The notes: a model not told the origin generated them from the letters alone. DNA of 64,000 bases from Azospirillum sp. (GCA_035629155.1 DASPIO010000028.1:23762-87761), one strand, 5' to 3'. Positions 24,880 through 39,612 are shown, counted from the stretch's first letter. A program made the numbers and translations.

Positions 24880-27054
24880 TCATTCGACGGGACGGGCGAA
24901 GCGGGCCTTGCGCTCCTGGTCGCGGCGGCGGGCCTGGTACCAGGCCGACGTGCGGTTCGACGCCAGCCAGTCCAGATCGTCCTCCGACACCTCCTCGCCG
25001 GCCTCGATGCGCGCCTCGATCGCCTGGGCGCGGCGCCACCAGCGGTCCTCCGGCTTCTCGGCGGCCTGGGCCGGGGCGGCGAGGCGGCGGGCGACGTCGG
25101 CCTGCCGGACCGTGTCCGCCTCGGTGCGCGGCGCCGCGACGGCGGGCTTCGACGCGGTGATCGCGCGCTGGGCGGCCTCCAGGCCGGCGGAGGGCGGCGG
25201 CAGGGACGAGCGCGGCAGCGCGGAAACCGTGGCCGCGGGCCTGCCGATCAGCGCGTCGGCGAGCTGGTGCGGCTTGAACCCCTTGCCGGCGGCGCGGATG
25301 GCCGCCTTCTGATCGGCGATCAACTGCTGTTGCAGCGCCTTGGCCTGGGCCGACAGCTCGGCCCGCGACAGGCCGGCGCGTTCCGGGTTCTGGGCGATGC
25401 AGAGGAATTGGAACGGATCGGGGCGGTACACGAAGACCCGGTCCATCCGCTCCGGATCCAGTCGGACCTCCAGGCGGTCGCCGGTGCCGACGTAGGGGAT
25501 CAGCTCCGGCGCCCAGAAGTCGGCGTTCTCGACCCGGATTCCCTTTTTGCCCACGGTGCGGGTGCCGTCGCCGTCCGCGCAGGGCATCAGCAGCAGGTCG
25601 AGTTGGCGTTCGTCGACGACGCGCCACTCGGATCCTGCGTGCTCCTCCGCCACGGCGGCCGGGGTGCGGTCGCCCAGGCCGGCGTGCGGGCTGGTGTGAT
25701 AGCGGTTCTCGACCCACGCATCGGCCAGCATCTGCAGCTCGGCCGCCGGCAAGGCCGCCTCGAACACCTCTTCGTCCTTCTGGCCCAGGCGGGCGGCGAA
25801 GGTCTGGCGCGAGCGGATCTCCTGACGCTTGGCCACGTTGTGGCCGGTGTAGCCGGGCAGCAGCGGCATCAGCCCGTGCTGAACCGTGCCGATCGCGCGC
25901 TCGACGTGCGGCTTCTGCTCGGGCGAGTACGGTGTGCAGACGGGGTGCCGTATGGCGTCGCCAACCAGCGCGAAGAAGCGTTGCGTCTCGCGGGCCAGGA
26001 AGTCGGAGCCGTTGTCCGTCTTGATCGCCTCGGGCATGCCCCAGGCGAGGATGGCCCGGCGGATCAGCAGCAGCACGGCCGAGGCGCGCGGCACCTTGGT
26101 GACCAGGATCAGCATGCGGCGCGTGAAGACGTCGACCACGACGTAAATCGTGTGCCGCCCATCGGTCAGCATCAGGTCGGTCGGGCTGGCGTCGATCTCC
26201 CACAGCTCGTTGGGCTTGGTGATCGCCTCCGAATAGGAGCCGACGGCAACGAGGCTGCGGTTCTTCCAGGCGTCGGGGTTGGTCAGCCGCAAGTGGAGCT
26301 GCTTGTACTCCTCGCGCCATTGGTTGAGGCGGCGGCGGATCCAGCCGGCGGTGGGCATCTTCGCCTGACCGCCGCGCAGCAGCTCGAACCCCTCGCCGAA
26401 GCGCTTGACCAGGGCCGCCCGGTAGGCGTCGGCGTTCCAGTCGGGCTTGGCCAGCGCCACGGCGACCAGATAGCCCATGATGTCCTCGCGCGCCTGATCC
26501 AGCGACCCGGCACCCTTGCGGTTGCCGTAGGCGCCGGCCAGCCGGGCGGCCTCGCCGGACTCCACGGCCTCGACCCAGCGGCGAAGGGACGATGGGGACA
26601 CCGTGGGCTTGGCGGCACGGGCCCAATCCGGCACGTCCACCTCGCGGGCGTTGTAGAAGCCGGTGAACTTGTGCACCAGCCGGTCGCGGGACAGGCCGCC
26701 GGCCTGCCGCTCGAAGGCGAGGAAGGCGTTGGCGATGGTGGCCTTGGCGTCCAGCCGGGCCTTGCCGGCCTTGGTCAGCACCACCGGGGCGGCGGCGGTG
26801 CCTTTCAGCGTGGCCGCGAGCTTGGGCGGCGCCGGCGGGGTGGCCTGCTCGGCGGCGCGGCGGCCCAGTTCGATGCGGGCTTCCGGCGGAAGGGCTGTGA
26901 CGTGGTACTCGGTGCCGCCGCCGCGGCCCTGGCGGGGGCGAGCGGGCGACCAGCGTTCCTGCTGGGCCCGCATGTTGATGCCGCGCTTGGTGGACGGCAG
27001 GCCGGGGAGCGCGAAAAAGGCCAGTTCAGAAGCCGTGTACCAGCTTTCATCCAT
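24880..27054 (-). CDS. MuA-type DDE transposase
   Basis: N-terminal Mu DNA-binding domain (WYTASELA..ALPGLPST.RG), DDE motifs WEIDAS / KTDNGSDF / KPHVER, Mu C-terminal domain. Confidence 0.97.
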   Translation of the reverse strand: MDESWYTASELAFFALPGLPSTKRGINMRAQQERWSPARPRQGRGGGTEYHVTALPPEARIELGRRAAEQATPPAPPKLAATLKGTAAAPVVLTKAGKARLDAKATIANAFLAFERQAGGLSRDRLVHKFTGFYNAREVDVPDWARAAKPTVSPSSLRRWVEAVESGEAARLAGAYGNRKGAGSLDQAREDIMGYLVAVALAKPDWNADAYRAALVKRFGEGFELLRGGQAKMPTAGWIRRRLNQWREEYKQLHLRLTNPDAWKNRSLVAVGSYSEAITKPNELWEIDASPTDLMLTDGRHTIYVVVDVFTRRMLILVTKVPRASAVLLLIRRAILAWGMPEAIKTDNGSDFLARETQRFFALVGDAIRHPVCTPYSPEQKPHVERAIGTVQHGLMPLLPGYTGHNVAKRQEIRSRQTFAARLGQKDEEVFEAALPAAELQMLADAWVENRYHTSPHAGLGDRTPAAVAEEHAGSEWRVVDERQLDLLLMPCADGDGTRTVGKKGIRVENADFWAPELIPYVGTGDRLEVRLDPERMDRVFVYRPDPFQFLCIAQNPERAGLSRAELSAQAKALQQQLIADQKAAIRAAGKGFKPHQLADALIGRPAATVSALPRSSLPPPSAGLEAAQRAITASKPAVAAPRTEADTVRQADVARRLAAPAQAAEKPEDRWWRRAQAIEARIEAGEEVSEDDLDWLASNRTSAWYQARRRDQERKARFARPVE

Positions 27055-27541
27055 GATCGGCCTCCCGGATGCGGGCCTTCAGCTGGCTCCGGGCGGCCAT
27101 GTAGCGGGCGACCATCCCATCGCCGGCGTCGAGCATGCGGGCGGCTTCCCTGGCGTCGACGCGGCCGTCATTGCCCATGGCGGCGGCGAACTCCGCGAAA
27201 AGCCGACCTACCTGCTCACCAACGGCGGCCAGATCCTGGGGCAGGTTGCCAGCGTCGGCGTCGGTGAGGGGGCGGAACAGCAGGTAGCCCTGCTCGGCGG
27301 CCAGGAACTCGGTCACCACCATGCAGCCGGAGGCCGCCTGTAGGGCCCGCACGTCCGGGACCTTGAAATGCGCATTGCGGTTCGCGGAGTCCGGATCCGT
27401 GATGCGCTGGATCGTGGATTGCGACAGGCCAGTTAGTTCGGCCGCGCGATCCTGGCCCCGGCACCTCTCGACCAGTTCGGCGTAGGACGCTTTGAGGGTG
27501 CCGGGTTGCCGGGGCTTATACGCGCCTGGGTATTGGGCCAT
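27047..27541 (-). CDS. Phage regulatory protein (CII-like)
   Basis: Sits between ner and A; V..LQAASG..VVTEFLA...GY pattern of CII-like regulators. Confidence 0.65.
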   Translation of the reverse strand: MAQYPGAYKPRQPGTLKASYAELVERCRGQDRAAELTGLSQSTIQRITDPDSANRNAHFKVPDVRALQAASGCMVVTEFLAAEQGYLLFRPLTDADAGNLPQDLAAVGEQVGRLFAEFAAAMGNDGRVDAREAARMLDAGDGMVARYMAARSQLKARIREADHG

Positions 27542-27802
27542 GGTTTTACCCGTTGTGCGAGTAGCGGTTGCGATGCGACGGTCAAGGCGCGAGGAAATGG
27601 AGGATTAAATGCGGCTTGATCGAGCAAACTTCGGGCGGGAGGCGGTCAAGCACCTACTGGTGGGACTCGCCGCGCTGGGCGCGGCGATGTCCTCCGGAGG
27701 ATCGGCGCGGGTGGCGCTGGTTGATGAGGCGGGCCGCCGGTTCGGCTATGCCGCGGCAGTGTGGAAGGTGCGGGGTCTGTACCCGGCGCGGGACGGCGAG
27801 GG

Positions 27803-28090
27803 TCATGCCGCAGCTCTTTCCTCGGCGCCGCCGCGGGTGCGGCAAAGCCGGACACCGTCTGGCCGGTAACGCTCCGGAAACAGGTCGTGCACGGCGACTT
27901 CCAGCCGGTCGGCCAGCGCCCGCTCGATCCTTTCTGACGGTAGGAACAGGGCCTGCGACACGGCCTGGGCGCACACTTCCAGCTCGGCCGCGATCTGGCG
28001 CAGGCTGGAGCCCTTCCGCTTCAGGGAGGCGACCACCCAATCTCTGCGGTCCTGTGGGTCCGAGGGTACTCCGGATCTACGCATCGTCAT
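27803..28090 (-). CDS. ner: Ner-like early regulator
   Basis: WVVASLKRKGSSLRQIA...ERIERALADRL......LFPERY, the Ner/Nlp HTH pattern; divergent from the repressor. Confidence 0.9.
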   Translation of the reverse strand: MTMRRSGVPSDPQDRRDWVVASLKRKGSSLRQIAAELEVCAQAVSQALFLPSERIERALADRLEVAVHDLFPERYRPDGVRLCRTRGGAEERAAA

Positions 28091-28226
28091 CCCTACGACT
28101 ATCGATATGTCTACCGTCGTATCACGAGCATGCTTCGCATGCAACGAGCATTTTCGATGTGGGAATCCTTCCCGGTTCGGCCCACGCTTGAAGGGCGCGC
28201 GCATGTGCAAAGGCGACGGGATAACA

Positions 28227-28787
28227 ATGACTTACGACAACCGGGAAGGGCCGGACGAAGTGGGAAGGGCTCTTCCCACTTACGAGGCGGAACTGGGAAC
28301 ACGGATTTCCCTCGTCATCGACCTGTACGATCTTAAGGCCGACGCGGCACGGGTCGCGGATGTTACGCCCGAGATGTTGAACCGGTACGTGCGCGGACAG
28401 CACAAAATACCCTTCACCAACGCCGCTCGGCTGGCTTCAGCCAAAGGTGTCAGTCTTGACTGGCTGTGGAGCGGAGAAGGACCAATGCTTCTGCGTGATC
28501 GCGTGCACGACTCGCCGCCAGCGGCGGTCGAGTCATTCGACCTTGCGTTGATGGGCAATCTCGTGTCCGGCCTGATGGCATTCCTGCAAAGGGAGAGCCT
28601 GGATCTAGATCCGGAATACATTGGTCGGGCGGTGACCCTGCTTTACATGCTGATGGAGCGCGAGCGCCGCGACACCACCCCGGAGGATCGGCCGGATCTG
28701 TGGGTGGAGGGGCACCCCGTGGACATCGCAAACGATAAAATCCTGGCGGAAACCGTACGCCTCGCACTCGGGCGGTTGCGTAGGTAG
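28227..28787 (+). CDS. Prophage repressor (XRE HTH; no S24 peptidase domain)
   Basis: AARVADVTPEMLNRYVRG...LASAKGVSLDWLWSGEGPM; divergent from ner at the left end, as for Mu c. Confidence 0.85.
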   Translation: MTYDNREGPDEVGRALPTYEAELGTRISLVIDLYDLKADAARVADVTPEMLNRYVRGQHKIPFTNAARLASAKGVSLDWLWSGEGPMLLRDRVHDSPPAAVESFDLALMGNLVSGLMAFLQRESLDLDPEYIGRAVTLLYMLMERERRDTTPEDRPDLWVEGHPVDIANDKILAETVRLALGRLRR

Positions 28788-29277
28788 GACTATCAGGTGT
28801 AGCTTCATGGCTCGCCGCAACCCTGAGTACGTGAGTATGCAGGCCGCGGTGGGGGCCAGGGCTACCAACCCCGGTCGCCCAGGGTGCGCACACACCCCGG
28901 AACGAGAGAACGCAACGACACGCGCTAGTCGCGTCTCGCCCCCCAGCCGCCACGCGGCAAGGGGAAGTGTAAGGCCGGGAGTGTGCATGAAAAGCTTAGA
29001 TGTCGAAGCGTGCTTCCCTTCAAAAACCGTGATCCTCGCCGAATTTGAGGCGATACTCATCCACGCTCGCCCACGGCGTGTGGTCGCATGCCCCTTGTGG
29101 AATGGAGAGTTGAGAGCGTGTCAAAAAGACGATATTTCAACTCGGCCAGAACAGAGGGGCAGCCTTGCTCCTCATCATGATCAATGTGGTCGGTGAGCGC
29201 TGAATTTTCCGTGCGTGTGTAGACGATTGTAGACGGTAAAGCGACAACGCAAAGAGACACATCGGAGGAACGCAGCA

Positions 29278-29514
29278 ATGAAGCCGGAAGACCGTCCGAC
29301 ATCCATGGTTTCTTTTCCGCTAACAATAGTTGGCGTGCTATTTCTTGCCGGAGGCGGGATGATGCTAACCGGCACTCCGCCGAACTTCATCGGCTCGATC
29401 GGCGCGGTGGGGATCGGGCTAGCCCTGATCGGCTTGGCCGGCATCAACACGCGCTTGGCCGAGGTGATCCACGAGTTGCGCCTCATCCGCGCCGCCGCAG
29501 AGAGGGTGCCATGA
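29278..29514 (+). CDS. Small two-TM membrane protein (left-end moron)
   Basis: Two hydrophobic segments; coupled to the next gene. Confidence 0.6.
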   Translation: MKPEDRPTSMVSFPLTIVGVLFLAGGGMMLTGTPPNFIGSIGAVGIGLALIGLAGINTRLAEVIHELRLIRAAAERVP

Positions 29515-30035
29515 AAGCCGGTCACCTCGCCCTGTCTGCTTTCTTCCTTCTCGGATCAGCCGGGCCTTGCGCGGCCGATTGGCAGTTCACCCGATGGGGA
29601 ATGACGGTCGAGGAAGCTGTTCGTGCAGCTGGGGCCGCAGGGGTGAATGTGGATGCGGGCGGCACTGTGCCTTCCGGCGACGGCAAGCTTACGAAGCTCC
29701 CCATTCCATACTACAAGGTGGGCAGTATATTTTTTGATATATCTCTGGTGTTCGAGTCGCCGGATAATAGGCTTGTCATGGTGCTGATGACGGTGAGTCA
29801 GCGCGGCGATTTTGACAGGCAGAAGCTCGACGCCCTGCGTATGGATTTGCTTCAGGCGTTCGGCTCTCCTTTTGCTGTGAATCAGCAAGACGGGTTTGAC
29901 CTCGCGATGTGGCGCGACGTGACCCGCAACAACCGGATATTCGCGAAAATCCGCGTCGATCCGCCGGGCAGAACGGGCGGCCTGCGCGACACCTCCATCA
30001 TGTACACGCCGCTCGTTCCCGTCAGCGCCTTCTGA
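29511..30035 (+). CDS. Exported protein (left-end moron)
   Basis: Signal-peptide-like N-terminus followed by WQFTRWGMTVEE. Confidence 0.7.
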   Translation: MKAGHLALSAFFLLGSAGPCAADWQFTRWGMTVEEAVRAAGAAGVNVDAGGTVPSGDGKLTKLPIPYYKVGSIFFDISLVFESPDNRLVMVLMTVSQRGDFDRQKLDALRMDLLQAFGSPFAVNQQDGFDLAMWRDVTRNNRIFAKIRVDPPGRTGGLRDTSIMYTPLVPVSAF

Positions 30036-30044
30036 CCGGCCACC

Positions 30045-30217
30045 GTCAAACCATCCGTCCGTCAGCGTACAATGCGGCGATGTCCGTATGGTTTGACAGA
30101 ACGGAGTGGACGCGTCTCGAAAACCTAGGCATCACAACGCCTGCACGTCCCACTCGATCCCCCAAAATCCCACCGTATCCCGGCCCCCTATCCCGTCAAA
30201 CCATTGGTCTCTCTACA
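30045..30217 (-). repeat. Helper left end (attL): three transposase-binding motifs (30045-30054, 30088-30097, 30195-30204) and terminal CA
   Basis: GTCAAACCAT / ATGGTTTGAC / GTCAAACCAT; read inward, the end is TGTAGAGAGACCAATGGTTTGAC. Confidence 0.9.
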
Positions 30218-30955
30218 CCGGTGCGTCGATCGCCTCGGGCGTCAGGCGGAAGGTGCCGAAATGCATGGCTACGCTGGTGCGGGCACCCAGGTCCTCGTGC
30301 GCCGCCACCGCCTCCTCCGGGTTCATGTGCTGCGGCGCCATGAACCAGCGCGGCTCGTAGGCGCCGATGGGCAGCAGCGCCACGTCGATGCGCGGGAAGC
30401 GGGCGCCGATCTCCTTGAAATGCGGGCCGTAGCCGGTGTCGCCCGCGAAGTACAGCGTGCCGGCATCCGTCTCCACCACGAAGCCGCCCCACAGCGTCGT
30501 GTTGCGCCGGAAGGGCGCGCGCGCCGACCAGTGCTGCGCCGGCACGAAGGTGACGCGGCAGCCGGCCGGTCCCCGCGTGCTCTGCCACCAGTCCAGTTCC
30601 TCGACGTGCGCGAAGCCGTCGCCGTTCAGCAGCGGCCCGTTGCCCAGCCCCACCACCGCCCGCGGCCCGAAGCGCCGGGCCAGCGCCGCCAGCGACGGCC
30701 GGTCCAGGTGGTCGAAGTGCCCGTGGCTGACCAGCACGAGGTTCGGGTCCGGCAGCCGTTCCAGCGGCACGCCCGGCGGGCGGGCCCGCTTCGGCCCCAG
30801 CCGGCCGAACGGACCGGCCCGTTCGGAGAACACCGGGTCGGTGAGCAGGCGAAGGCCCGCCGCCTGCACCAGGAAGGTGGCGTGGCCGACATGGGTGACC
30901 GCCAGCGCGCCCGGTGCCGGGGGTGCCGGGACCGGCTGCGGCGGGTCCTCGACGC
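30218..30955 (-). pseudogene. Middle fragment of a host MBL-fold metallo-hydrolase (NAPE-PLD/RomA-like), cut by both elements
   Basis: VTHVGHATFLVQ, LLTDPVFSERA, SHGHFDHLD, FAGDTGY, LPIGAYEP, MHFGTF motifs. The reading frame is broken at 30217 (helper end) and at 30956 (satellite end). Confidence 0.95.
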
Positions 30956-31000
30956 TGTAGCGCGCCGAATGGTTTGAATTGGCGCGCTGGATGGTTTGAC
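30956..31000 (+). repeat. Satellite right-type end: terminal TG and two tandem ATGGTTTGA sites (30969, 30991) 22 bp apart
   Basis: Read directly from the sequence; the 22-bp period matches Mu R1/R2 spacing. Confidence 0.88.
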
Positions 31001-31053
31001 AGCGCTGACACCCCGTTTCAGGCTTACCGGGAATTGAAGAAGCCTTGGCGCTT

Positions 31054-31467
31054 CTAGGCTAGCGCCGGCAGTGTCGCATCGTCGCCCAGGTGCGCAATTT
31101 GAACATTCCTTCCCGGCGGCTTCCCCCCTGGAGGCTCGATGATAACAACGCCGTCTTTCGTATGATAATGGATAATCAGGACTGTGCGCGCACATCTGGC
31201 GGGATTGGAAAGACGGGACAGGGCTTGCCGATTGTACTTTTTCAAAAAGCGAAAGCATTCACGCATATAGATCCTGTATTCTTCCTGAATATCTTTGCGG
31301 AGCTGTTCCAATGCCGTTGGGCATGGCGGGTTGCCGCACAGATCGCTTTCCCACTTGGCAAATACATTATTCAAACGCGATGAAAGGTCGGCCGCCACTT
31401 CCCCTGACAGCAGGCGCGCGGTTACCTTCTGTGGGCGCTCCCCTGTGCCGTCATACGCGTGCTGCAT
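31054..31467 (-). CDS. Satellite cargo, hypothetical protein (137 aa)
   Basis: AGGAG upstream of TTG ATG; lower GC. The ORF track labels it '+', but the listed translation (MQHAYDG...) reads on the minus strand. Confidence 0.6.
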   Translation of the reverse strand: MQHAYDGTGERPQKVTARLLSGEVAADLSSRLNNVFAKWESDLCGNPPCPTALEQLRKDIQEEYRIYMRECFRFLKKYNRQALSRLSNPARCARTVLIIHYHTKDGVVIIEPPGGKPPGRNVQIAHLGDDATLPALA

Positions 31468-31518
31468 CAACGTCCACTCCTGATTGGTTCGTTATGCCCT
31501 CCCGCTCGACAAGAGGGC

Positions 31519-31546
31519 CGCTCGGCCGGATCTGGCCGGCCGAGCG
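31519..31546. repeat. Perfect 11-bp inverted repeat just downstream of the satellite chaperone stop
   Basis: CGCTCGGCCGG-ATCTGG-CCGGCCGAGCG; no U-tract, so a terminator role is uncertain. Confidence 0.6.
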
Positions 31547-31554
31547 CGCCGGAA

Positions 31555-32079
31555 TCACTTCGGCTGCTCGCCGTTGACGAGCTGCCAATAGGCGTCCTCC
31601 ATCGCCTTGCCGATCACGCGATAGCCGGCCATGGCTTCCACGAGGTCGGGCGAGAAGTCCGGCAGCGTCGAGAAGAAGGCATTCCAGCCGTGGTTGTCGG
31701 GCAGCCCCACCACCACCTTCCGCAGCAGCTCCGTGCGAAAGCCCTTGTGCTGGCTTTCCAGCTTCTCGACTTTGGCGTTGAGTTCCTTCAGATCCTTTTT
31801 CGCCTTGGCGGCGTTGCCGTCCGACGCTTCCAGGGCGAGTTTCGCGGCCTCCTGCTTGGCCTCCGCGATCTCGCTGACGCGCTGGCCCAGCTCGGCGATG
31901 AGCTGATCGTGCTCGCTGTCCGGCAGCAGCATGAACGACAGATAACAGGTCTTTTTGACCTGTTTCCCACCCACCCAGCCGCCGCTGGCACGCTTGGCCG
32001 TTTCCGGCCAGTTGAACATGACCGGCCACACAAACGTCATTTCGGTGGGGGCTGCAAGAGTAATCTTAACCTGTTCCAT
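31555..32079 (-). CDS. Satellite tail assembly chaperone G (paralogue of 713-1207), no frameshift site
   Basis: Shared motifs TF.WPV...WPE.AK, KTC...F.L.PDSE.D.L, LLR.VVVGLPDNH.W, LP.FS.DLVEAMA, W.LVNG. Ends GAG CAG CCG AAG TGA. Confidence 0.9.
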   Translation of the reverse strand: MEQVKITLAAPTEMTFVWPVMFNWPETAKRASGGWVGGKQVKKTCYLSFMLLPDSEHDQLIAELGQRVSEIAEAKQEAAKLALEASDGNAAKAKKDLKELNAKVEKLESQHKGFRTELLRKVVVGLPDNHGWNAFFSTLPDFSPDLVEAMAGYRVIGKAMEDAYWQLVNGEQPK

Positions 32080-32102
32080 TTCCGCTCTCACTCGTTCTTT
32101 AG

Positions 32103-32540
32103 TTAATCCATCAACGAATTGAAGTATTCTGCAATGTCTCTCCATTCGCCTGTCAAAGACTGCTTTGCTGATGCGATCAGGTCATTGATGTACACCTCAA
32201 CTTCGAACCTGACATTCTTTCTTTTGTTTTGGTACAGCGCGCTCAGTCGGCGCCTCTGCCAGCGCTTTGTTAACATGGACCCGAGAAGGCGTTCGGTGTC
32301 GTCAATGTGCGCCACCAGTATTCTCTCAATGCTTGCTCGCAGATCGGAAAACAGAGGATGTCTGGCATCAAAATGTTCTGATGATCCAACCAGTTCAGAA
32401 AACGCATTGCGATTGCTGATATCCCAGCGTTCCAGCACGCTGCGGATTGCGTCAGCTCCGTTTGTCGGCATAGCGGGGCGCATTATCCGAAACTCGACGC
32501 TGTTGCGGTTCTGGATCGGTATTCGGCCGCGTGCGGGCAC
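32103..32540 (-). CDS. Satellite cargo, hypothetical protein (start uncertain)
   Basis: AT-richer ORF between the Ntn-like gene and the chaperone; no recognised family. Confidence 0.55.
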   Translation of the reverse strand: MPARGRIPIQNRNSVEFRIMRPAMPTNGADAIRSVLERWDISNRNAFSELVGSSEHFDARHPLFSDLRASIERILVAHIDDTERLLGSMLTKRWQRRRLSALYQNKRKNVRFEVEVYINDLIASAKQSLTGEWRDIAEYFNSLMD

Positions 32541-33145
32541 CCAAAGCGGTCGTAATACTCGCTATAATCAGGGTAAAATCCTGCTATTTTTTGATCGGCG
32601 CCATGCTCATTTACTTCGGTAAGATGCATGACGCCACCAATGCACATTGGTTGACTAAATTTCTCCTGTACCTTGTGCTGCCCAAGCGCCATCTTTACCA
32701 TCATGGCCTCATCGGCATGCGCGGGAAGGCGCACACCCGGCGCCATTCTGGGCGCAAGATGAATGCCCGGCTCCATCGTGGTCGCCTGGACAGGCACACC
32801 ACCGGCGCGAAGCTTGTACCTCGTGCTCTGCGGCGCCTGCTTGTTGGCGGACCAGCACATCAACGTGATTTCACCACCGGACGCTTCGAAGAATTCATCA
32901 CCGATACGCTCGGGGACGCCGCGAATAACGATATCCACATGCTCTATGCTTTCGACGCGCGCCAGTACAGGCCCAAGGACTTGAAGAAGCGCATGTGTTC
33001 CGCGCATGGAGAATGCAAATCGGCCGCTCTCAGAGACGAAACACTTTCGTTCGCAAAGGCCAACCGGCATGTTGCCCCGGTATATCATCGTGTCCGTCAG
33101 GCACAAAATGCGGTCGCTTCCCACGAATACGTTGCTGACGCTCAT
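32483..33145 (-). CDS. Proteasome-beta/HslV-like Ntn-hydrolase-fold protein
   Basis: After Met removal: Ser1, Asp17, Lys33, Gly48 and C-terminal IGGVMHLTEVNEHG, matching beta-subunit catalytic spacing. ATGA overlap with the TMP stop. Confidence 0.65.
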   Translation of the reverse strand: MSVSNVFVGSDRILCLTDTMIYRGNMPVGLCERKCFVSESGRFAFSMRGTHALLQVLGPVLARVESIEHVDIVIRGVPERIGDEFFEASGGEITLMCWSANKQAPQSTRYKLRAGGVPVQATTMEPGIHLAPRMAPGVRLPAHADEAMMVKMALGQHKVQEKFSQPMCIGGVMHLTEVNEHGADQKIAGFYPDYSEYYDRFGCPHAAEYRSRTATASSFG

Positions 33146-34530
33146 TTAATTGCCTCTTCGAACGCGGAGACGACTTCGGGGCAGGTCAAGAATTCGTCCG
33201 AGAACTCACACTCGGCCATAACCTTCTCAAGCTCGTTGGACAGATCCTTCAGATTGTCCGTCTGGGTCACGACACCGCCACTGCCGTTGGCGGGCGGGGC
33301 GTTGTCCTGCTTCGTCAGGTCGTTGAGTTCGCGTTGCAGCTCGATCCGGCGCTTGACCAGCGCCTCATGCATGGCGGGAACGCCGCTCGTTTTCTCGGGA
33401 AGGCGCCCGTACTCCCGGTCTATCCGCTCGATCTCCGCCCGCAACAGCGACGCCCTGTCCGACTCGATGCCGGCGCGAAGCGCCTTGGCCGCGTCACTGA
33501 CCTTGCCCGCAACCAGCTTGGCAATGTCGCTCCGGGCGAGGCGGTCAACGTAGGCGTCCCAGGCCACGCCAGCGTCATGCAGCGCGGCGCCCCACTCGCT
33601 GCGCATGGTCTGGGCCGCGCCACCGTACCGCTGGCGCAACGCCTCGATGGCGACGTTCAGCGCGCCGGCCTTGTTGCCGTGGTCAGCCAGCATGCGCACC
33701 TGGCGCTCTTGCTCGACCGACAGGAAGTTCAATTCCGCATCGAGTCGCTTGACGCCCTCGCCCCCCTTGCCGAGAGCGTCCCCCATCTTGGCGGCGGCGG
33801 CCGGGATCGTGTAGCCCAGCACCGCCGCAACATCCGGCGCGAGTTCCAGGATGCTGCGGAACAGCTCCGGGTCACGGAGGTCGGGGTTGCGCACCAGCTC
33901 CAAGGTGGACTGGTATGCTTCGCTGCGGGACGCCCCTGCATGGATCGCGACGTTCGCCATGTCGCGGAGCTGGCCGGCCGTGATGCCGGCCTCATTGCCC
34001 ATCGCCTTCAGGATGGACGCGAGTTCCCGCCCCTCGGCACCGATGCTCGCCATGCGCGCGGCGACGATGCCGATCGGCGCGGCGATCACGGCGGCGGCGG
34101 CGCCGATGCCCAGGATGCGGCCCGTGATGCCGGGGAACGCTTGGAGCAACTGCCCGCCCTGTTGCATCAGGACGGTGAACGGGCTGGCGCCGGACGACAG
34201 CGATGCCGCAACGTCGCTGGCCGTGTAGCTCAGCGCCTGGATCTGCTGCGTGCTGAACCTCGTCTTGGTCGCCAAGTTGTCGTTGGCGCTGGCCGCACCG
34301 CCGAACGCCGCACCGGCCCTGTCGGCGGCGCCGGCCGCAGCGCCCAGCGATTGCTTCGCCTCGTCCGCCAGTGTGTCCAGGCGGCCAAGCGCCTGTGAAA
34401 GTTGCTGGCCAGCTTCCCGGCCAGTATCACCAAGCTTGGACACCTCGCCCGTTGCCTTGCGAAGCTCCACTACGAAGTCTTCGGCTTCCGCAGTCAGCTT
34501 GAGGACGACGTGTTCTGCAACCTTGGTCAT
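33142..34530 (-). CDS. Satellite short tape measure protein (462 aa)
   Basis: QQIQALSYTASDVAASLSSGASPFTVLMQQGGQLLQAF lambda-family TMP motif; N-terminus similar to the helper TMP start at 304. Confidence 0.88.
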   Translation of the reverse strand: MTKVAEHVVLKLTAEAEDFVVELRKATGEVSKLGDTGREAGQQLSQALGRLDTLADEAKQSLGAAAGAADRAGAAFGGAASANDNLATKTRFSTQQIQALSYTASDVAASLSSGASPFTVLMQQGGQLLQAFPGITGRILGIGAAAAVIAAPIGIVAARMASIGAEGRELASILKAMGNEAGITAGQLRDMANVAIHAGASRSEAYQSTLELVRNPDLRDPELFRSILELAPDVAAVLGYTIPAAAAKMGDALGKGGEGVKRLDAELNFLSVEQERQVRMLADHGNKAGALNVAIEALRQRYGGAAQTMRSEWGAALHDAGVAWDAYVDRLARSDIAKLVAGKVSDAAKALRAGIESDRASLLRAEIERIDREYGRLPEKTSGVPAMHEALVKRRIELQRELNDLTKQDNAPPANGSGGVVTQTDNLKDLSNELEKVMAECEFSDEFLTCPEVVSAFEEAIK

Positions 34531-34647
34531 GACGATACTCGCTCGCGATTGGGCCGGCGCTGGACTGCTAGACCAGCCCAGCGCCGGCCGCACTCCGATG
34601 CGGTAAGGAGAGCCGGCCCCCGCACCGGATGCCGCTGGGATGCCCGG

Positions 34648-35568
34648 TTACAGGTACGGGGACACCACCAGTTCGGCGGTGCCGGCCCACTCGTTGGGCG
34701 CCGCGACCGTCTGTTCGTTCGGCGCCGTGCCCACCGTGACCAGCTTCATGTTGTTCTTGATGAGACGCAGCCCGTCGCCTTCCAACTCGTCCGGCACCAC
34801 GAGGATGTTGGGGGTAAGGCCCAGCTTCTTGCCGTTCTCGCCCCGGATGCTCTTGATCGCCACGCGGGCCGCCTCGTAGTTGTCGTGCGTCAGCGGCGCC
34901 TTGCTCGCATAGGCGAGCTGCCAGAGCCCGAAGCCGGCGTTGGCGCGCGCGCGGACGCCGTAGAAATACTCGTCTTTCCAGAAGACGTTGTCGTCCGTGG
35001 CGGCGTCCTGCCTCTGGAACTCGTACGGCAGCCGCTCCTGAAACACGAGGGGTTTGACCGGCTGGCCGGCGTCCATCAGGAACCACGCCGGCCCGGCCCC
35101 ATCCTGATAGTTGCTGTAGGACGTAGGCTGACAGTCGATATCCACGACATGATCAGTGGAGAAGAACGGCTTGCCGTCGTAGCACAGCTCGGTAAACCCG
35201 GCTGCCAGAAGCTCGTACACCAACTGGTCGGGGTGCTTCGCCGCGTCGGCGCCCATCTTCTCGTACAGCGGGCCGAAGACGCCGTACTGGTCATCTTCGA
35301 TGGCCGTACGGGGAACGCCAATGGTCACCTCAAACGTGCGGTTCTTGATGGTGTAGCCCGCGACTTCAAGGTTATGGATGATACGCGAGCCGATCCATTC
35401 CCGAAGCTGCGGAAGTTCCTTCAACCAACCATAAGCTTCTTCGCCCGTCGCGCTGTTTGTCTTCATGGCGATTTTCAGGTACGTGCTTTCGACGCCCTTG
35501 AAGCCCTTGTTGAAGGAGGTCTTGAACCCGGCGAACATGCCGGCGAGGTTGGGGGCGGTGATGAGCAT
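34648..35568 (-). CDS. Satellite Mu-like major capsid protein gpT (306 aa)
   Basis: MLITA...F.GF.TSF, REWIG.R..HNLE, CYDG..FF.TDH, GFG.WQLA..SKA.LT..NYEAAR; divergent paralogue of 4750-5643. Confidence 0.95.
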   Translation of the reverse strand: MLITAPNLAGMFAGFKTSFNKGFKGVESTYLKIAMKTNSATGEEAYGWLKELPQLREWIGSRIIHNLEVAGYTIKNRTFEVTIGVPRTAIEDDQYGVFGPLYEKMGADAAKHPDQLVYELLAAGFTELCYDGKPFFSTDHVVDIDCQPTSYSNYQDGAGPAWFLMDAGQPVKPLVFQERLPYEFQRQDAATDDNVFWKDEYFYGVRARANAGFGLWQLAYASKAPLTHDNYEAARVAIKSIRGENGKKLGLTPNILVVPDELEGDGLRLIKNNMKLVTVGTAPNEQTVAAPNEWAGTAELVVSPYL

Positions 35569-35577
35569 GGCTGTCCC

Positions 35578-36543
35578 TTACAGGTTCTTGGCGTATTCGG
35601 CCGGATCGTGTCCGAGGGCCGCGCAGATGGCCTTCTGTTCGGCGGTAAGGCGCCCATCGGCGCCCGAGTTCGGATCGGGCGGCCGGCCCCCCGGCACCAC
35701 CTCACGGGCGAGGTTGCCGAACACGGGCGGAGCGCTGGCGGCGAACTGGTCGAAGCTGGCCGGGTTGGATCGGCAGAGGACGAGCCCCCACTCCCGCTGG
35801 GCCGGTGTCATCTTGCCGGCGCGGATCGCGGCGTCGACCTTGGCCGTCGCCTGCTCCTCCGAAAGGTTGGTGCGCATGCTGGCGAGCTGCGTCGCGGCTT
35901 CATCATAGAGATGGCGCGGCACGTAGAGGGACGGGTCGGGCACGGCGGCGGCCGTCGCCTTCTCGCTGGCGTCCTTGACCAGCTTCGTGACGGCCTCGAT
36001 CACGGCCGCTTCGTCGCTGGTGTCGGGCAGGTTCAACAGCGCGCACAAGCGCTTGATGGTTTCGGGCGACATGGGCGCTCCCATACTGGCAAGGGCCTTG
36101 AGTTCGAAGGCCGGGTTGTTGACCAGGGCGGCCCGAAGAATGCAGGTGACCGCGCCTTCCTTGGTGTGCCGGAAGACGGGGGACACGTAGCGGTACTCCC
36201 TGGCCGCGATCTTGGCAGCGGCGCGCTGCGTCCACTCCACGCGGCCCCAGATGCCATCAGGGCGGGCCTCAAAGGCCGCGATCCAGCCTGCGGCGGGCGC
36301 CTGTCCACCGTGCGGGGCGGCGAGGTCAACGGCGTGGTCGTAGTCGATCACCGGCTTGACCGGACCGGCCATCGTCAGGGACGCGGCGATCACCTGTTGC
36401 GCGGCGGCCATGCCGGGAAGGGACCAGGGGCCGCGACCGTCGCGGCCCTTGATGGTGCCGTAGGGCAGAAGCTGCACCCAATCCGGCGGTGCGGCGGGGA
36501 GTTCGGAAGAGAAGGAGGCGAGAGCGATCAGGGGATCAGTCAT
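35578..36543 (-). CDS. Satellite prohead protease/scaffold gpI; internal scaffold start at 36072
   Basis: DWVQLLPYG, PVIDYDHA, GIWGRVEWT, EYRYVSPVF, ALVNNPA. GGGAG precedes the internal ATG (MSPETIKRLCALLNL). Confidence 0.93.
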   Translation of the reverse strand: MTDPLIALASFSSELPAAPPDWVQLLPYGTIKGRDGRGPWSLPGMAAAQQVIAASLTMAGPVKPVIDYDHAVDLAAPHGGQAPAAGWIAAFEARPDGIWGRVEWTQRAAAKIAAREYRYVSPVFRHTKEGAVTCILRAALVNNPAFELKALASMGAPMSPETIKRLCALLNLPDTSDEAAVIEAVTKLVKDASEKATAAAVPDPSLYVPRHLYDEAATQLASMRTNLSEEQATAKVDAAIRAGKMTPAQREWGLVLCRSNPASFDQFAASAPPVFGNLAREVVPGGRPPDPNSGADGRLTAEQKAICAALGHDPAEYAKNL

Positions 36544-36910
36544 TGCTAATATCCCCATAGATCTCGCGGCGCACTTTCCTTACGTGGCGTTCAGTACATC
36601 CCACGGCCTGTGCGACGACACGCGTTTTCGCGCCTTCCATCGCCAATATCAGTTCCTTCTTGGAACCAGCCGGCGGCGGCAACACCGGGATGTCAATCTG
36701 TTCTCCAGGATACATATTTCCTATTATTTTGGCGTGCTCCAGTCCGACAATCTTTGCGATCTTGGATCGTTCCGAAGGGCTCGCGGCAAATTTCCTCTTA
36801 GTGCCGCCCCAAGAAAGGCCAAGTTTTATTGCCGTTTCGTATGATGTCGCCCGCGCAATACCCGCCAAGAAGGGAGGAAGCCTCTTGATCCTGTCATCAG
36901 TGATCGCCAT
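36536..36910 (-). CDS. Satellite Mor/C-family activator (paralogue of 15702-16076)
   Basis: WGGTKRK, YPGEQIDIP and GCTERHVRKV shared with the helper activator. Start placed at ATG 36910 by alignment; the track's GTG at 36952 overlaps the predicted -10 box. Confidence 0.88.
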   Translation of the reverse strand: MAITDDRIKRLPPFLAGIARATSYETAIKLGLSWGGTKRKFAASPSERSKIAKIVGLEHAKIIGNMYPGEQIDIPVLPPPAGSKKELILAMEGAKTRVVAQAVGCTERHVRKVRREIYGDISND

Positions 36911-36948
36911 AGCCTTGACGTAGCCCCCCGGCATCGGAATTGGTTCCG

Positions 36949-36995
36949 ACACTAGGGGGACGGAGAAGCGTCTATCGACGCGGAACTAGTTCCCC
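36949..36995 (-). promoter_or_regulatory. Satellite late promoter: dyad GCGGAAC-TA-GTTCCCC (36980-36995) plus -10 TAGTGT (36949-36954)
   Basis: Same dyad and 25-nt spacing as the helper late promoters. Confidence 0.7.
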
Positions 36996-37067
36996 TTTGT
37001 CGGGGGAGCTGAGAGATATCCAGCTTTGATGAAGAGGAGCGGCCGATACGCCCGGCCGATTGCCGCC

Positions 37068-37092
37068 CGTTTGAACGGGGCTTTGAACGCCT
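37068..37092. repeat. Tandem TTTGAACG repeat shared with helper 7369-7393
   Basis: CGTTTGAACGGGGCTTTGAACGCCT vs CGTTTGAACGGGGTTTTGAACGCCT, 24/25 identical. Confidence 0.85.
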
Positions 37093-37251
37093 CTGGGGCG
37101 TAGGGCGCACCCACGCTACCGGAAAACGCCAGAACGCACCAGCGGGCTTCCTGTGGGCTTCCAGGGCGGGGCACCCGGCAGCCACCTCCAATGCGAAACG
37201 CCCCGCCGGTAGACCCGGCGGGGCGTTGGTGTCGGCAGCGCGGCGAGGCGT

Positions 37252-37584
37252 CTACGCCTCGCGGGCGTGCCCGCCAGCGCCAACCGCGCGCTCCATGATC
37301 GTATCGACCTTCTCCGTGACTAGCTCCAGCATGGCGATCCACTGGCCCCGCTCGGTGGTGCCCATGATCATCGCTTCAATGGCGCGCAGTCCGGCCTTCA
37401 CCTGCATCAGGTCGTCGCCCAGGCTGTGTTCTGCCTCGCCAGCGACGTAGCCGGCCATGCCCCTCCTACGCGCCTTCCCCATGATGGACGTGAGTTCTTC
37501 GATCACCGCTTCTCTGACCGCGCTCCCCCGCTCCGCGCTGTTCTTGAGGAAGATCACGTTGTTTCCGGTGTTGTCGTGGGCCAT
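37252..37584 (-). CDS. Satellite early hypothetical protein (110 aa)
   Basis: AGGAGG upstream of ATG; helical ORF downstream of the Bro-like gene. Confidence 0.6.
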   Translation of the reverse strand: MAHDNTGNNVIFLKNSAERGSAVREAVIEELTSIMGKARRRGMAGYVAGEAEHSLGDDLMQVKAGLRAIEAMIMGTTERGQWIAMLELVTEKVDTIMERAVGAGGHAREA

Positions 37585-37691
37585 ATTCGAAGAGCCTCCT
37601 ATGGGTTCGCCCGGTGGCACGGTGGCGGGGCACGGTTTTCCAGGCCAAGCGCCCCGCCACCACCCGTCGCGGGCGGTGGGGTGGTAGGGAA

Positions 37692-38216
37692 TCACGATCC
37701 GGCGATGTCGAGGATGCGACGCGCCTTCTCGATGGTGACCGTCAGTTCCATGCGCACGAGGTTGGTTGTGGGGATGCCAGCCCCCGCCTCGCCCATGTCC
37801 AGGCCCGGCGGGATCGGCGGGGCCTCACCCTCCGGCCCGAAGGTCGTGTAGAGCCACCGCAGCACCCCAACGGCGTGGGCGGAGCGACTACGGGCCACCA
37901 TCACCTTCGCGGCAGGGATGGAAAGAAGGCGGGTTGCGGCGCCTCTCCCGTCGTCGATCTGGCGCAGTAGGACGGCGCCCGGCTCTCGCAGTTCCGGGAA
38001 GGTTGACGCGGCATGGTCCACCGACTGCCTTGCCCAACTGGCGCCGGCCGCCCGCATCAGGTCGTTGCCGAGGACGTAGGTTGTGCCGTCCACCGAGAAG
38101 ACGCGGACGGGGGCCGCACCACAGTAGAGGGTGCAGACAGGCGGCAGGCGGGCGTTGTCGGCTGGCACCTCGGGCCGTCCTTCGGCGGGGGCCGCTGGTG
38201 TGCGGGGATCGTCCAT
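37692..38216 (-). CDS. Bro-N / antirepressor-like protein
   Basis: VRVFSVDGTTYVLGNDLMRAAG...LLSIPAAKVMVARSRS.HAVGVLRWL pattern. Confidence 0.7.
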   Translation of the reverse strand: MDDPRTPAAPAEGRPEVPADNARLPPVCTLYCGAAPVRVFSVDGTTYVLGNDLMRAAGASWARQSVDHAASTFPELREPGAVLLRQIDDGRGAATRLLSIPAAKVMVARSRSAHAVGVLRWLYTTFGPEGEAPPIPPGLDMGEAGAGIPTTNLVRMELTVTIEKARRILDIAGS

Positions 38217-38244
38217 CTACTGCTCCAAACTGCGGTTGCGTTGG

Positions 38245-38315
38245 CCCCATGCATGGGGTAATTTGCCCCAGATTGGGCGCCGTTGCAATGGCAAAATGCG
38301 CCAACGTTGGGGTAA
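38245..38315. promoter_or_regulatory. Three operator-like dyads between divergent regulators
   Basis: CCCCATGCATGGGG (38245-38258, perfect), CCCCAGATTGGGCG (38266-38279), CGCCAACGTTGGGG (38299-38312). Confidence 0.65.
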
Positions 38316-38323
38316 ATCGCACC

Positions 38324-38560
38324 ATGATTACGGGTGACCAAATCCGGGCCGGCCGGGAACTGCTCAACTGGTCTGCCCGCGTCTTGTCTGAGCGGGCAGG
38401 CGTGGGGCCGAACACGGTGCAGCGCATGGAAAGCGCCGGAGCGGCGGTGCCATCAGGTCTTGCCGCCAACCTGGACAAGGTGCAGAAGGCATTAGAGGCG
38501 GGTGGGATTGAGTTCCGGGACGGCGGGTGGGTGCGTAGGTCACCGCAGAACGGCGCGTAA
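38324..38560 (+). CDS. XRE-family HTH regulator (satellite repressor candidate)
   Basis: MITGDQIRAGRELLNWSARVLSERAGVGPNTVQRME...LEAGGIEF, a common alphaproteobacterial XRE pattern. Confidence 0.88.
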   Translation: MITGDQIRAGRELLNWSARVLSERAGVGPNTVQRMESAGAAVPSGLAANLDKVQKALEAGGIEFRDGGWVRRSPQNGA

Positions 38561-38645
38561 GACGTGCTACCGATCACCAATGCGAGGGTGTCAACGCCAA
38601 AGTGATGCACCTTAACCACCGGCATCACTGTGGTAAGGTGCGCAC

Positions 38646-38843
38646 ATGGCTGTGAACCCGGATACCACCGTACGCAAGGTCGTCTCGCTTCCCAAAGAGT
38701 TGTGGGAAGAGGTGAGCGACTATCGCTTTGATAACAGATTGGGCACGGAAGCGGACGCGCTTCGGCGTCTGATCCAACTTGGATTGGATGCCGCCAAGGC
38801 CAGTCCCCGCGATCCTGGCCGCGCACCGTCGCGGAAGCGCTAG
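38646..38843 (+). CDS. Ribbon-helix-helix (CopG/Arc-like) protein
   Basis: RKVVSLPKELWEEVSDYRF...TEADALRRLIQLGL. Confidence 0.8.
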   Translation: MAVNPDTTVRKVVSLPKELWEEVSDYRFDNRLGTEADALRRLIQLGLDAAKASPRDPGRAPSRKR

Positions 38844-39291
38844 TCGCTCCCCAAAGCAAGCGAGGCGGGACCGCGCCAGCGGCCCCGCCTCGTAGTGTCT
38901 GGCACCCATGCGGAGGGTTGGGAGACTGGCGTCAACGGACGCCACGCCCCACCACGTTGCCACACCAGCGCCCGCCCGATGCCTCGGAACGAGTTCCGCT
39001 TGGTGGGAGCCGGCGGCAGGCTCCATCTACAACCGGCGCGCGATCCCGAGACGGCGGGCCGGAACCGGAACCCCTTCCCACTTCCGGACGGATCTTTCAT
39101 CGCGCGATGGTTGTGACGGAAACGCAAGCCACTGCAATAACAAGCTTTTTTGAACTGTAGCCTTCCCAGTTTGACTGGAAACGCTAGCTTCCACTTCCGT
39201 CCCACTTCCGTAGCCGAACCGGGACCCGGCCTACGCGCCACATCCCTTGCAAATCTTGGCTTTAGCTGCGTTTTAGTGCCGCCTCCGTTCA

Positions 39292-39462
39292 GTCAATCCA
39301 TACGTCTCCCGGACACTTTCGCGCGTTGCGCCGCATGGTTTGGCGGAAAATTCCGGTTGTGCCCCTAACCCTATGATCCAATGCGCCGTTCATCCCATCT
39401 GATCCCCGAAAATCCCACGGTATCCCGGCCCCCTATCCTGTCAAACCATTGGTCTCTCCACA
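39292..39462 (-). repeat. Satellite left-type end: three transposase-type sites (39292, 39335, 39440) and terminal CA
   Basis: GTCAATCCAT / ATGGTTTGGC / GTCAAACCAT in the same orientations as the helper, spacings 43 and 105 bp vs 43 and 107 bp. Last 62 bp are 58/62 identical to 30156-30217. Confidence 0.92.
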
Positions 39463-39612
39463 GACGCGCTCCGGCCAAGGCGCCCAGCCGCGGTGCGACC
39501 AGAAACGCAGCAGGTCGCCCGGGCCCTTGTCGGTCGACTGGAAATGCGGCGGGTTGAAGAACCGCCGTCCGTCGCAATGGTCGGAAACCGGGAAGCGCGC
39601 GATGCGGGCCAT
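39463..39612 (-). pseudogene. N-terminal fragment of the interrupted MBL-fold hydrolase
   Basis: MARIARFPVSDHCDGRRFFNP...DLLRFW...WPERV, the usual N-terminus of this family; joins in frame to 30950. Confidence 0.92.

Follow-up and report, generated by a model that had tools for sequence, protein, structure and literature searches.

What use does a genetic element have for a tape measure protein (TMP) when it codes for no tail tube, terminator, tip or fiber protein? The question is raised by a stretch of 64,000 nucleotides of Azospirillum sp. DNA (GCA_035629155.1, DASPIO010000028.1:23762-87761), called here the window, whose positions are counted from its first letter. It carries an apparently complete Mu-like siphovirus prophage, the helper, and next to it an island of 8,507 bp whose genes include one for a short TMP of 462 residues, sTMP (Table 1). 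An initial annotation, made from the sequence alone, placed sTMP in a satellite beside its helper and proposed that it either templates short tails from helper tube protein or acts as a dominant-negative that poisons helper tail assembly. The satellite premise is strongly supported. The island reads as a non-autonomous phage satellite of Mu type and small size, in effect a naturally occurring “mini-Mu”, and this assignment is well supported by its Mu ends, the 5-bp target duplication, the empty site found in related strains, a left end like that of the helper, and the absence from the island of any transposase, terminase, portal or other tail structural gene. For sTMP, the reading put forward here, at a probability of about 0.45, is one of construction: the protein would rebuild the tails of the helper into shorter chimeric ones that serve the satellite.

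A Short Tape Measure Protein with Its Own Carboxyl Terminus

On the minus strand, the sTMP reading frame extends from an ATG at 34530 to the stop codon at 33142. The longest form, begun at the GTG that lies in frame at 34593, would have 483 residues, but the homologous proteins begin at the ATG. The GC content at third codon positions (0.83) is like that of real genes of the surrounding sequence, which has 65–72% GC. Pfam TMP_2 (PF06791) matches residues 94–279 (E 4.5e-24; score of 85.7 bits, threshold 30.2), and PHROG 24 and eight further tape-measure PHROGs match as well, nine tail families in all. The protein features a hydrophobic, membrane-like segment at residues ~138–160 and an acidic carboxyl terminus without repeats (..MAECEFSDEFLTCPEVVSAFEEAIK) that carries the conserved motif CEF..(x)..F.EAxK. 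Its stop codon overlaps the start codon of the next gene, coding p220, in an ATGA (AAATGAGCG). Judged by its sequence, sTMP is a genuine TMP of the TMP_2 family, related to lambda gpH; the lambda-family motif, the acidic non-repetitive end and the coupling to the following gene that the initial annotation had described are thus all borne out. The homology that it had also seen between the sTMP amino terminus and the start of the helper TMP (GTG at 304) is plausible but thin (32% identity over 50 residues, pairwise E 8e-4).

The position of the gene is non-canonical: it comes directly after the capsid gene, the tail assembly chaperone homologue lies downstream of it and lacks a frameshift site, and there are no tube or tip genes. 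The spacer of 117 nt that separates it from the capsid gene holds a GC-rich 16-bp stem-loop, after which no U-tract is found. This structure may attenuate or stabilize the transcript and thereby set the capsid:TMP ratio.

A homology search of 5.8 billion proteins yielded nine cluster representatives of sTMP, the one from the window included, all with intact reading frames and 36–100% identical to the query (36–60% for the other eight). Six have 448–464 residues (the window’s own and five others), one has 565 residues with an amino terminal extension, and two have 766–767 residues with an insertion in the carboxyl terminal coiled-coil region. Common to all nine are the amino terminus M..LKLTADA.., the core YTASDVAAS...MQQGGQ and the carboxyl terminal motif CEFP......E...IF.EAMK. 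The closest relatives in species-representative genomes are ordinary TMPs of 1,117–1,160 residues from prophages of Hyphomicrobiales (29–33% identity), which serve here as proxies for the helper TMP since the latter runs off the window. Residues 15–404 of sTMP are collinear with residues 103–477 of the 1,117-residue prophage TMP. Beyond that there is no alignment, and sTMP therefore corresponds to the amino terminal ~40% of a normal TMP followed by a tail of its own of ~55 residues. Its carboxyl terminus is unrelated to that of the 1,117-residue relatives, and the full-length architecture with the tip-binding region was not encountered. A random truncation, named beforehand as the outcome that would speak against the initial annotation, is not what the sequences indicate: length, amino terminus, carboxyl terminal motif and coupling are conserved across lineages and across mobility backbones.

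The searches for a more complete helper TMP were negative. Exact-protein look-ups with three helper late genes that have good ribosome-binding sites gave no match, nor did a homology search with the 101-residue amino terminal fragment of the helper TMP. A search of IMG/VR with the helper major tail protein gave no relative, and a look-up of the helper MuB gene led only to a contig of 9.2 kb. In lambda, the TMP accounts for ~0.15 nm of tail per residue. By this ratio, the predicted tail length is about 70 nm for sTMP versus about 170 nm for a TMP of ~1,120 residues.

The Coupled Protein p220 Has a Proteasome-Like Fold

Protein p220 has no match in Pfam, PHROG, NCBIfam or PADLOC and no PDB sequence match below E 0.6. 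Its AlphaFold2 model (pLDDT 78, pTM 0.80) gives 664 Foldseek matches in the PDB at E ≤ 1e-3, the top ones being beta subunits of 20S proteasomes (E 5e-8 to 1e-6, TM 0.5–0.62), and its fold matches in BFVD are HslV- and proteasome-like phage proteins. The fold rules out a tail-tip protein (Dit/gpL-like), which had been a candidate identity for p220.

HMMER, run exhaustively over 1.84 billion representatives to delimit the family, retrieved 185 relatives at E ≤ 1e-3, 103 of them at E ≤ 1e-10. Nearly all have 205–235 residues and align from residue 1. Not one of 102 members matches a Pfam family, Proteasome included. In the alignment of these 102 proteins, 76 have Ser and 24 have Thr at position 2, Asp18 and Gly49 are invariant (102/102 each), Lys34 is present in 101 and Arg48 in 99, and Gly170-Gly171 are nearly invariant. 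Assuming removal of Met1, the conserved residues correspond to the Ser/Thr1-Asp17-Lys33-Gly47 constellation of proteasome-type amino terminal nucleophile peptidases (summarized in PMC8665760). By modeled fold and catalytic set, p220 is thus a predicted peptidase of the proteasome/HslV type.

The ATGA overlap of TMP stop and p220 start is found in all seven loci that were read at base level. One of them (L087) codes for a TMP of 761 residues that belongs to another family (TMP_3) and has a similar acidic end (..DFRDADMVPDEVADEFNHMVAEVLE). The possibility that p220 is the usual partner of related full-length TMPs was ruled out by tblastn: at 80 loci coding for full-length TMP relatives, no p220 homologue was found within 10 kb. 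A scan of JGI metagenomes for p220 added one locus, of the L087 type. The PADLOC defense models, run on sTMP, p220 and seven neighboring open reading frames (ORFs), gave no meaningful match.

The Cassette Recurs on Different Backbones

The gene order capsid, short TMP, p220 recurs on five kinds of backbone. A transposase-less Mu type is represented by the window and by its closest relative, L092, whose synteny with the window begins at the early ORFs and extends as far as the chaperone gene. In L003/4, an element of ~9 kb with terminal inverted repeats, the cassette is accompanied by a DDE transposase of its own, MuB and GemA, while L097 has a Mu-type helix-turn-helix (HTH) regulator and a protease-capsid fusion. 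A tyrosine integrase backbone (L005/6) codes for a Mor-like activator, a protease-capsid fusion, a TMP of 565 residues and a distant chaperone homologue. The fifth kind (L093/94), two IMG/VR contigs of 13.6 and 16.8 kb, features TerL, a lambda-type portal, a protease-capsid fusion, a cement protein, a TMP of 562 residues, p220 and an integrase; by gene content these elements look like phage-inducible chromosomal islands that form capsids (cf-PICIs). The cassette is present also in L098 (Mu protease, gpT, a TMP of 767 residues, p220) and, in another form, in L087/88, where an integrase, HTH_17 and a protein of 447 residues accompany the TMP_3-family TMP and p220, and no capsid gene was recognized. 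There are no tube or tip genes in any of these relatives (L092, L098, L003/4, L097, L005/6, L093/94, L087/88). A homologue of the island chaperone is found in L092 and L005. Recurrence across such backbones fits a portable satellite cassette, not a decaying prophage.

The terminal inverted repeats of L003 lie at 3720–3766 and 12761–12798 and are made of repeated ..TTCTGCACTG.. units. The element sits between host genes for an MFS protein and an enoyl-CoA hydratase. It has a capsid gene and no prohead protease gene.

The Island Is a Mu-Type Insertion with a Helper-Like Left End

The junctions of the island with host DNA read ...GTCCTC GACGC / TGTAGCGCGCC ... CTCTCCACA / GACGC GCTCCGG.... Mu-type transposition characteristically leaves TG..CA ends and duplicates 5 bp of the target. 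The empty site was found in related strains (runs X4 and X5, ~90–95% identity), in which window position 30950 is joined directly to 39467/39470; the 7 and 4 unaligned bases of these contigs are consistent with a single copy of GACGC. Because the contigs join its two flanks, the stretch 30956–39462 is recognized as an insertion in a host gene coding an MBL-fold hydrolase. Pfam and PHROG scans of the island ORFs found no genes for transposase, MuB, integrase, terminase, portal, connector, tube, tip or lysis proteins. Pfam recognizes only head, TMP and HTH families in the island, and no unassigned ORF is longer than that of 220 residues. All its reading frames are intact, and two public contigs (L001, L002) carry the same island at 99.99–100% identity.

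The left, regulator-proximal end of the island is identical to the left end of the helper at 38 of 40 and 63 of 70 positions. Counted from the tip, both have AATGGTTTGA-type repeats at 14, ~120 and ~163, and two such repeats are found at the island right end (positions 14 and 36 from the tip). The 14-mer of the end repeats, TCAAACCATNNGTC, occurs 8 times in the window for 0.1 occurrences expected. These repeats are putative transposase-binding sites. In Mu, the packaging signal pac is located in the left end, and a pac site may also be present in the left-end region of the island. The proteins of the island are 40–50% identical to their helper counterparts, and the island is therefore no recent copy of this prophage. 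Since the left ends match closely despite such divergence of the proteins, we infer that the helper transposase, and probably its packaging machinery too, acts on the island.

A direct repeat of 70 nt (30148–30217 and 39393–39462) had been considered as the att sites (attL/attR) that an island of integrase type would have. This interpretation was dropped: no integrase, tRNA or Rfam match was found, the island ends fall at 30956 and 39462 according to the empty-site contigs, and the left repeat copy belongs to the helper as its own left end.

Two Mu-type elements thus occupy one MBL-fold hydrolase gene in the same orientation, 739 bp apart. Mu target immunity is expected to disfavor insertion so near to ends bound by the same transposase, which makes the order of events and the cross-recognition of the ends noteworthy. 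Copies of TCAAACCATNNGTC are found also inside the helper, at 318–331 (+) at the TMP start, at 4325–4338 (−) upstream of the gp36-like gene and at 16523–16536 (−) upstream of the Mor-like gene. They could be sites for the transposase or for a regulator, or could be due to chance.

A Tail Assembly Chaperone Homologue Accompanies the Cassette

The view that the island holds no tail structural gene besides sTMP stands for tube, terminator, tip and fiber genes and needs correction at one point, a homologue of a tail assembly chaperone (Table 1). Its helper counterpart, coded at 713–1207 (−), lies between the genes of the 427-residue major tail protein and of the TMP, immediately upstream of the latter. 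A slippery heptamer, GGGAAAC, is found at 716–722 (−) just before its stop codon and is followed by an ORF in the −1 frame (330–720, −) that stops 26 nt ahead of the TMP start. The heptamer and the overlapping −1 frame identify the helper gene as a canonical G/GT tail assembly chaperone, a textbook case of programmed frameshift in a Mu-like siphovirus. The island homologue has neither slippery site nor −1 extension. Its fold model has a pLDDT of 63 and the best match of a fold search is no lower than E 0.4; the assignment is made through homology to the helper G/GT gene, not through fold.

Depth of Sequencing

In run X1 (soil DNA) the island is on a single contig of 9,000 nt (30727–39726) with a depth of 469, the helper contigs have depths of 141–162 and the host contigs of about 95–170. 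At the level of contig depth in this one library the island is over-represented about threefold relative to host and helper. No alternative junctions at the island ends were seen in run X1, where the contig stops 229 and 264 nt outside of the island at variant bubbles. The excess would fit extra copies whose short flanks are the same or whose flanks are very heterogeneous, as expected from packaging in the style of Mu.

Strain variants break the host sequence of run X1 into many short contigs, while helper and island are unbroken by variants; this suggests identical copies of helper and island common to several co-existing host strains. The host region 42000–62000 is in hundreds of short contigs, and the helper contig (24.9 kb, reaching 5 kb beyond the window) and that of the island (9.0 kb) are uniform. 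Two soil metatranscriptomes were discarded as evidence of expression: helper and island behave alike in them, at depths of 1–9, a pattern that DNA carry-over would give as well.

Proposed Function and Alternatives

In the construction reading, the helper MuA/MuB and packaging machinery would act on the helper-like ends of the island, whose Mor homologue would link its late genes to helper induction. The island capsid protein and shortened scaffold would form heads, probably smaller ones, for about 9 kb of DNA. Coated by the island chaperone, sTMP would replace the helper TMP, and helper tube protein would polymerize around it to give a chimeric tail of ~70 nm instead of ~170 nm. The role of p220 would be exerted on the conserved carboxyl terminal peptide of sTMP, either in processing, as in the conversion of lambda gpH to gpH*, or in anchoring; the latter role is suggested by the fact that sTMP is devoid of the carboxyl terminal 60% that normally binds the tip. 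There is a precedent for building short tails, because the satellite PLE11 of Vibrio cholerae places its own TMP in shorter chimeric tails (PMC12987554).

A number of observations weigh against this scheme. Its main difficulty is the seating of sTMP in the tip complex of the helper, since sTMP lacks the carboxyl terminal ~640 residues that engage the tail tip in ordinary siphovirus TMPs and the island has no tip genes. The island chaperone is devoid of the frameshift “T” extension that recruits the tube protein in lambda, and the fold of p220 is that of a protease and not of a tail tip. The carboxyl termini were compared using proxy TMPs, as the helper TMP continues outside of the window, and the match between ends concerns the left end alone, the helper right end being beyond the window. 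The ~3-fold depth of the island is a contig-level value from a single library. The element and its relatives are known from their genes alone.

Some of these features are accounted for if sTMP is a decoy whose amino terminal 400 residues co-assemble with helper TMP and chaperone and whose carboxyl terminal peptide brings p220 along, so that helper tail cores are capped, mis-measured or degraded. Helper yield would then fall and the lysogen population would be protected in the manner of Tab, Tai or Rta. Such interference would agree with a protein that keeps the part homologous to normal TMPs without the tip-binding carboxyl terminus, with its invariable coupling to a partner whose proteasome-type catalytic set is intact, and with a G-only chaperone without tube-recruiting extension. 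Targeting of TMPs is moreover a known defense strategy, Mu-like Pseudomonas phages included: Tab (JBD26) acts on the TMP carboxyl terminus among Mu-like siphoviruses (PMC10884400) and Rta of PLE11 on the helper TMP (PMC12987554). The target of Tab, Tai and Rta is a TMP that belongs to a competitor or to the helper, as would be the case for sTMP, but they are small proteins unrelated to TMPs, and neither sTMP nor p220 resembles any PADLOC defense model. To spread, a satellite that has capsid genes of its own depends on tails, whose destruction would be self-defeating unless partial. TMPs of 448–767 residues within the same architecture also resemble a varying ruler more than a decoy. The decoy is the chief rival to construction, though on balance an unlikely one. 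The pair could also act away from the tail, sTMP and p220 being either a capsid-associated or injected pair for DNA entry through the inner membrane or a processor of another virion or host protein. The membrane-like segment of sTMP would suit this, as would the location of the pair directly after the capsid/decoration gene in every element but L087/88, with no connector, terminator or tube gene in between, and the retention of p220 in L003/4, which lacks a prohead protease gene. That p220 replaces the Mu protease is contradicted by the elements that have this protease and keep p220. The homology of sTMP is specifically to tail tape measure families (the nine PHROG tail families), and a homologue of the helper G/GT chaperone is kept in the island, L092 and L005; a role outside of the tail is accordingly regarded as improbable.

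That the island is a decaying Mu-like prophage and sTMP a functionless deletion product is by far the least credible explanation. Most phage functions are missing from the island, its proteins have the 40–50% identity to those of the helper that is expected of an old relative, and the chaperone gene comes after the TMP gene, not before it. Decay, however, is at odds with reading frames that are all intact, as are the ends and the target duplication, with the synteny of L092 throughout, with the depth of the island in run X1 (~3 times that of its flanks), and with the short architecture, carboxyl terminal motif and ATGA coupling, which recur on unrelated backbones and, at 36–60% identity, in at least eight cluster representatives. 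A more elaborate version of events, decidedly unlikely in its entirety, combines construction or interference with a specific arrangement of the two proteins: sTMP would be tethered through its carboxyl terminal peptide to a ring formed by the proteasome-like p220, the peptide docking on the ring much as the tails of HslU do on HslV. The ring could substitute for the tip-binding part of the TMP and seed polymerization of the helper tube, or it could be carried into helper tail cores and cut the helper TMP there. If this were true, the cassette would mark a whole class of capsid-encoding satellites, both Mu-type and integrase-type, that re-measure the tails of their helpers, and the member found in the window would be a true non-autonomous mini-Mu, moved and packaged through ends copied from the helper.

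Relation to Known Satellites and Proteases

P4 and P2 activate each other’s late genes through homologous activators (Delta/Ogr), and P4 has no capsid or tail gene. Island and helper likewise have a homologous late activator each, the Mor-like pair, 40% identical, for which cross-activation is inferred. Laboratory mini-Mu and defective Mu-like prophages share with the island the Mu ends and the dependence on a complete Mu for transposition and packaging in trans. The island differs from them: it is natural, its own conserved genes comprise an activator, head genes and a tail cassette, and it has relatives in other genomes, of which L003/4 differ further by their own DDE transposase and MuB.

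The construction reading finds its strongest outside support in PLE11, one of the PLEs. The PLEs have, like the island, no tube, sheath or fiber genes and an own TMP and tail assembly chaperone. In PLE11 the satellite TMP, chaperone and hub are incorporated in chimeric tails from which the helper TMP is excluded (Nature 2026, PMC12987554); the satellite TMP is shorter than that of the helper, the tails are shorter, and a third partner gene adjoins the TMP gene. This partner is a baseplate hub, whereas that of the island is p220 with its proteasome-like fold, the island having no hub or tip protein. The PLE TMP is only 95 residues shorter than that of its helper while the island TMP is less than half of normal length. 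PLEs further differ in their lytic myovirus helper, integration by a recombinase and re-use of the helper capsid protein; the island is of Mu type and has its own capsid gene. Predicted tmp genes are present in other satellites, cf-PICIs included (PMC12987554). The cf-PICIs are like the island small, equipped with an own capsid module and dependent on helper tails, and the cf-PICI-like L093/94 carry the same TMP-p220 cassette. The island has no integrase, terminase or portal, unlike cf-PICIs, and moves as a Mu-type transposon. A p220 partner is not described in the cf-PICI literature searched. EPIP satellites of Mycolicibacterium also code for a capsid protein and a TMP, and their tail length is altered relative to that of the helper (bioRxiv Dec 2025, PMC12822802). 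They differ from the island in their actinobacterial host, their serine integrase and their longer and variable tails (shorter ones being predicted for the island), and no protease partner is reported for them.

Protein p220 shares with HslV, proteasome beta subunits and the phage-associated PPH, RPC, DPH and AAH groups the fold, the Ser/Thr1-Asp17-Lys33-Gly47 spacing and the absence of a propeptide (PMC8665760). It stands apart from the Pfam Proteasome members, which none of the 102 aligned relatives matches, and is set beside PPH, RPC, DPH and AAH by description and not by sequence. The survey of Fuchs et al. 2021 (PMC8665760) gives no informative genomic context for any of the new groups of proteasome homologues, in contrast to p220, whose partner is always a TMP.

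Satellite-encoded TMPs are thus known already and were first shown experimentally in 2025–26, in one Vibrio system. Relative to the literature searched, in which no natural satellite of transposable (Mu-like) phages using helper transposition ends is described, what is new is a Mu-type satellite that is natural, has no transposase and resembles its helper at the ends, a TMP of 40% of normal length with a dedicated carboxyl terminal motif, and an invariable coupling of TMPs to a family of proteasome-like peptidases. The locus points to a new type of satellite, natural, living on Mu-like phages and using the transposition ends of its helper. Short TMP and p220 form a portable cassette over Mu-type, integrase-type and cf-PICI-like backbones, and the ~185 cluster representatives of p220, an orphan branch within the proteasome superfamily, thereby gain a functional context. 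A TMP of less than half of the usual length, without the tip-binding end, also offers a test of the ruler model as it probes the minimal needs for starting and ending tube polymerization. Provided that the host can be grown in culture, the system looks amenable to experiments: there is one helper and one 8.5-kb island, and tail length, island transfer and helper titer are measurable.

Gene Content of the Window

Read from 39462 to 30956, the island codes for two small regulators transcribed outward (one of them HTH_3), two early ORFs, the Mor/C-like activator, the gene-I type protease/scaffold and the gpT-type capsid protein, followed by the stem-loop, sTMP, p220, a small ORF, the chaperone homologue and an ORF of 138 residues. 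The protease/scaffold is shorter than that of the helper by ~55 residues of the middle linker. The 138-residue ORF has no homologue in the related elements and is markedly AT-richer than its neighbors; by composition it looks like an accessory (moron-type) gene. The helper early and packaging genes code for a repressor, a Ner-like protein, MuA (724 residues), MuB, Mor, a GH108 endolysin, gp27, TerL, a Mu portal and MuF. Its structural genes code for a protease, gpT, gp36, a morphogenesis protein, a tail terminator, the major tail protein, the G/GT chaperone and the TMP.

Table 1. Coordinates of the helper, the island and their features in the window.
Feature	Position	Strand	Remarks
Helper, Mu-like siphovirus prophage	1..30217	−	Same orientation as island; TMP GTG at 304 runs off window
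Helper left end	30018..30217	−	Ends ..TCTCTACA at 30217, in last codons of the same hydrolase gene
Host MBL-fold hydrolase, 3' part	30213..30950	−	Separated from 5' part by island; last codons from helper end
Target-site duplication, left copy	30951..30955	.	5 bp, GACGC; flanks island
Whole island	30956..39462	−	8,507 bp; ends 5'-TGTAG...CCACA-3'; Mu-type insertion
Island right end	30956..31010	+	Two AATGGTTTGA-type repeats
AT-richer ORF	31054..31470	−	138 aa; last gene before island right end
Tail assembly chaperone homologue, “G-only”	31555..32079	−	174 aa; 44% identity, E 2e-43, to helper 713..1207 (−)
Small ORF	32103..32540	−	145 aa (126 aa in public contigs); sequence not conserved in other elements
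p220	32483..33145	−	220 aa; start overlaps sTMP stop (ATGA); predicted proteasome-beta/HslV-like Ntn-hydrolase fold
sTMP, short tape measure protein	33142..34530	−	462 aa; TMP_2 domain, hydrophobic segment, acidic C-terminal motif
Stem-loop	34552..34589	−	GC-rich, 16-bp; within capsid-sTMP spacer
Major capsid protein, Mu gpT type	34648..35568	−	306 aa; 50% identity to that of helper
Prohead protease/scaffold, Mu gene-I type	35578..36558	−	326 aa; 41% identity to that of helper
Mor/C-like late transcriptional activator	36536..36952	−	phrog_836; 40% identity to helper 15741–16103
Two early-region ORFs	37252..38216	−	147/110 aa and 174 aa; both conserved in closest relative L092
Small HTH_3 regulator (Cro/CI-type)	38324..38560	+	Transcribed towards island left end, like Mu c
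Island left (regulator-proximal) end	39263..39462	−	Resembles helper left end
Target-site duplication, right copy	39463..39467	.	5 bp, GACGC; flanks island
Host MBL-fold hydrolase, 5' part	39468..39612	−	Begins MARIARFPVSDHCDGRRFFNP...; joined to 3' part in related strains

Outside of the island, a ClpP homologue that flanks it (39706–40482, −) has an amino terminal extension of ~80 residues ahead of the Clp protease domain, and run X1 holds at least one diverged paralogue of this protein. The same run shows spikes of depth at 41368–41407 and 47124–47213, with bins of ~1,950x and ~4,550x versus ~140x and many different continuations; these two segments are probably copies of a dispersed short host repeat of the REP (repetitive extragenic palindrome) kind.

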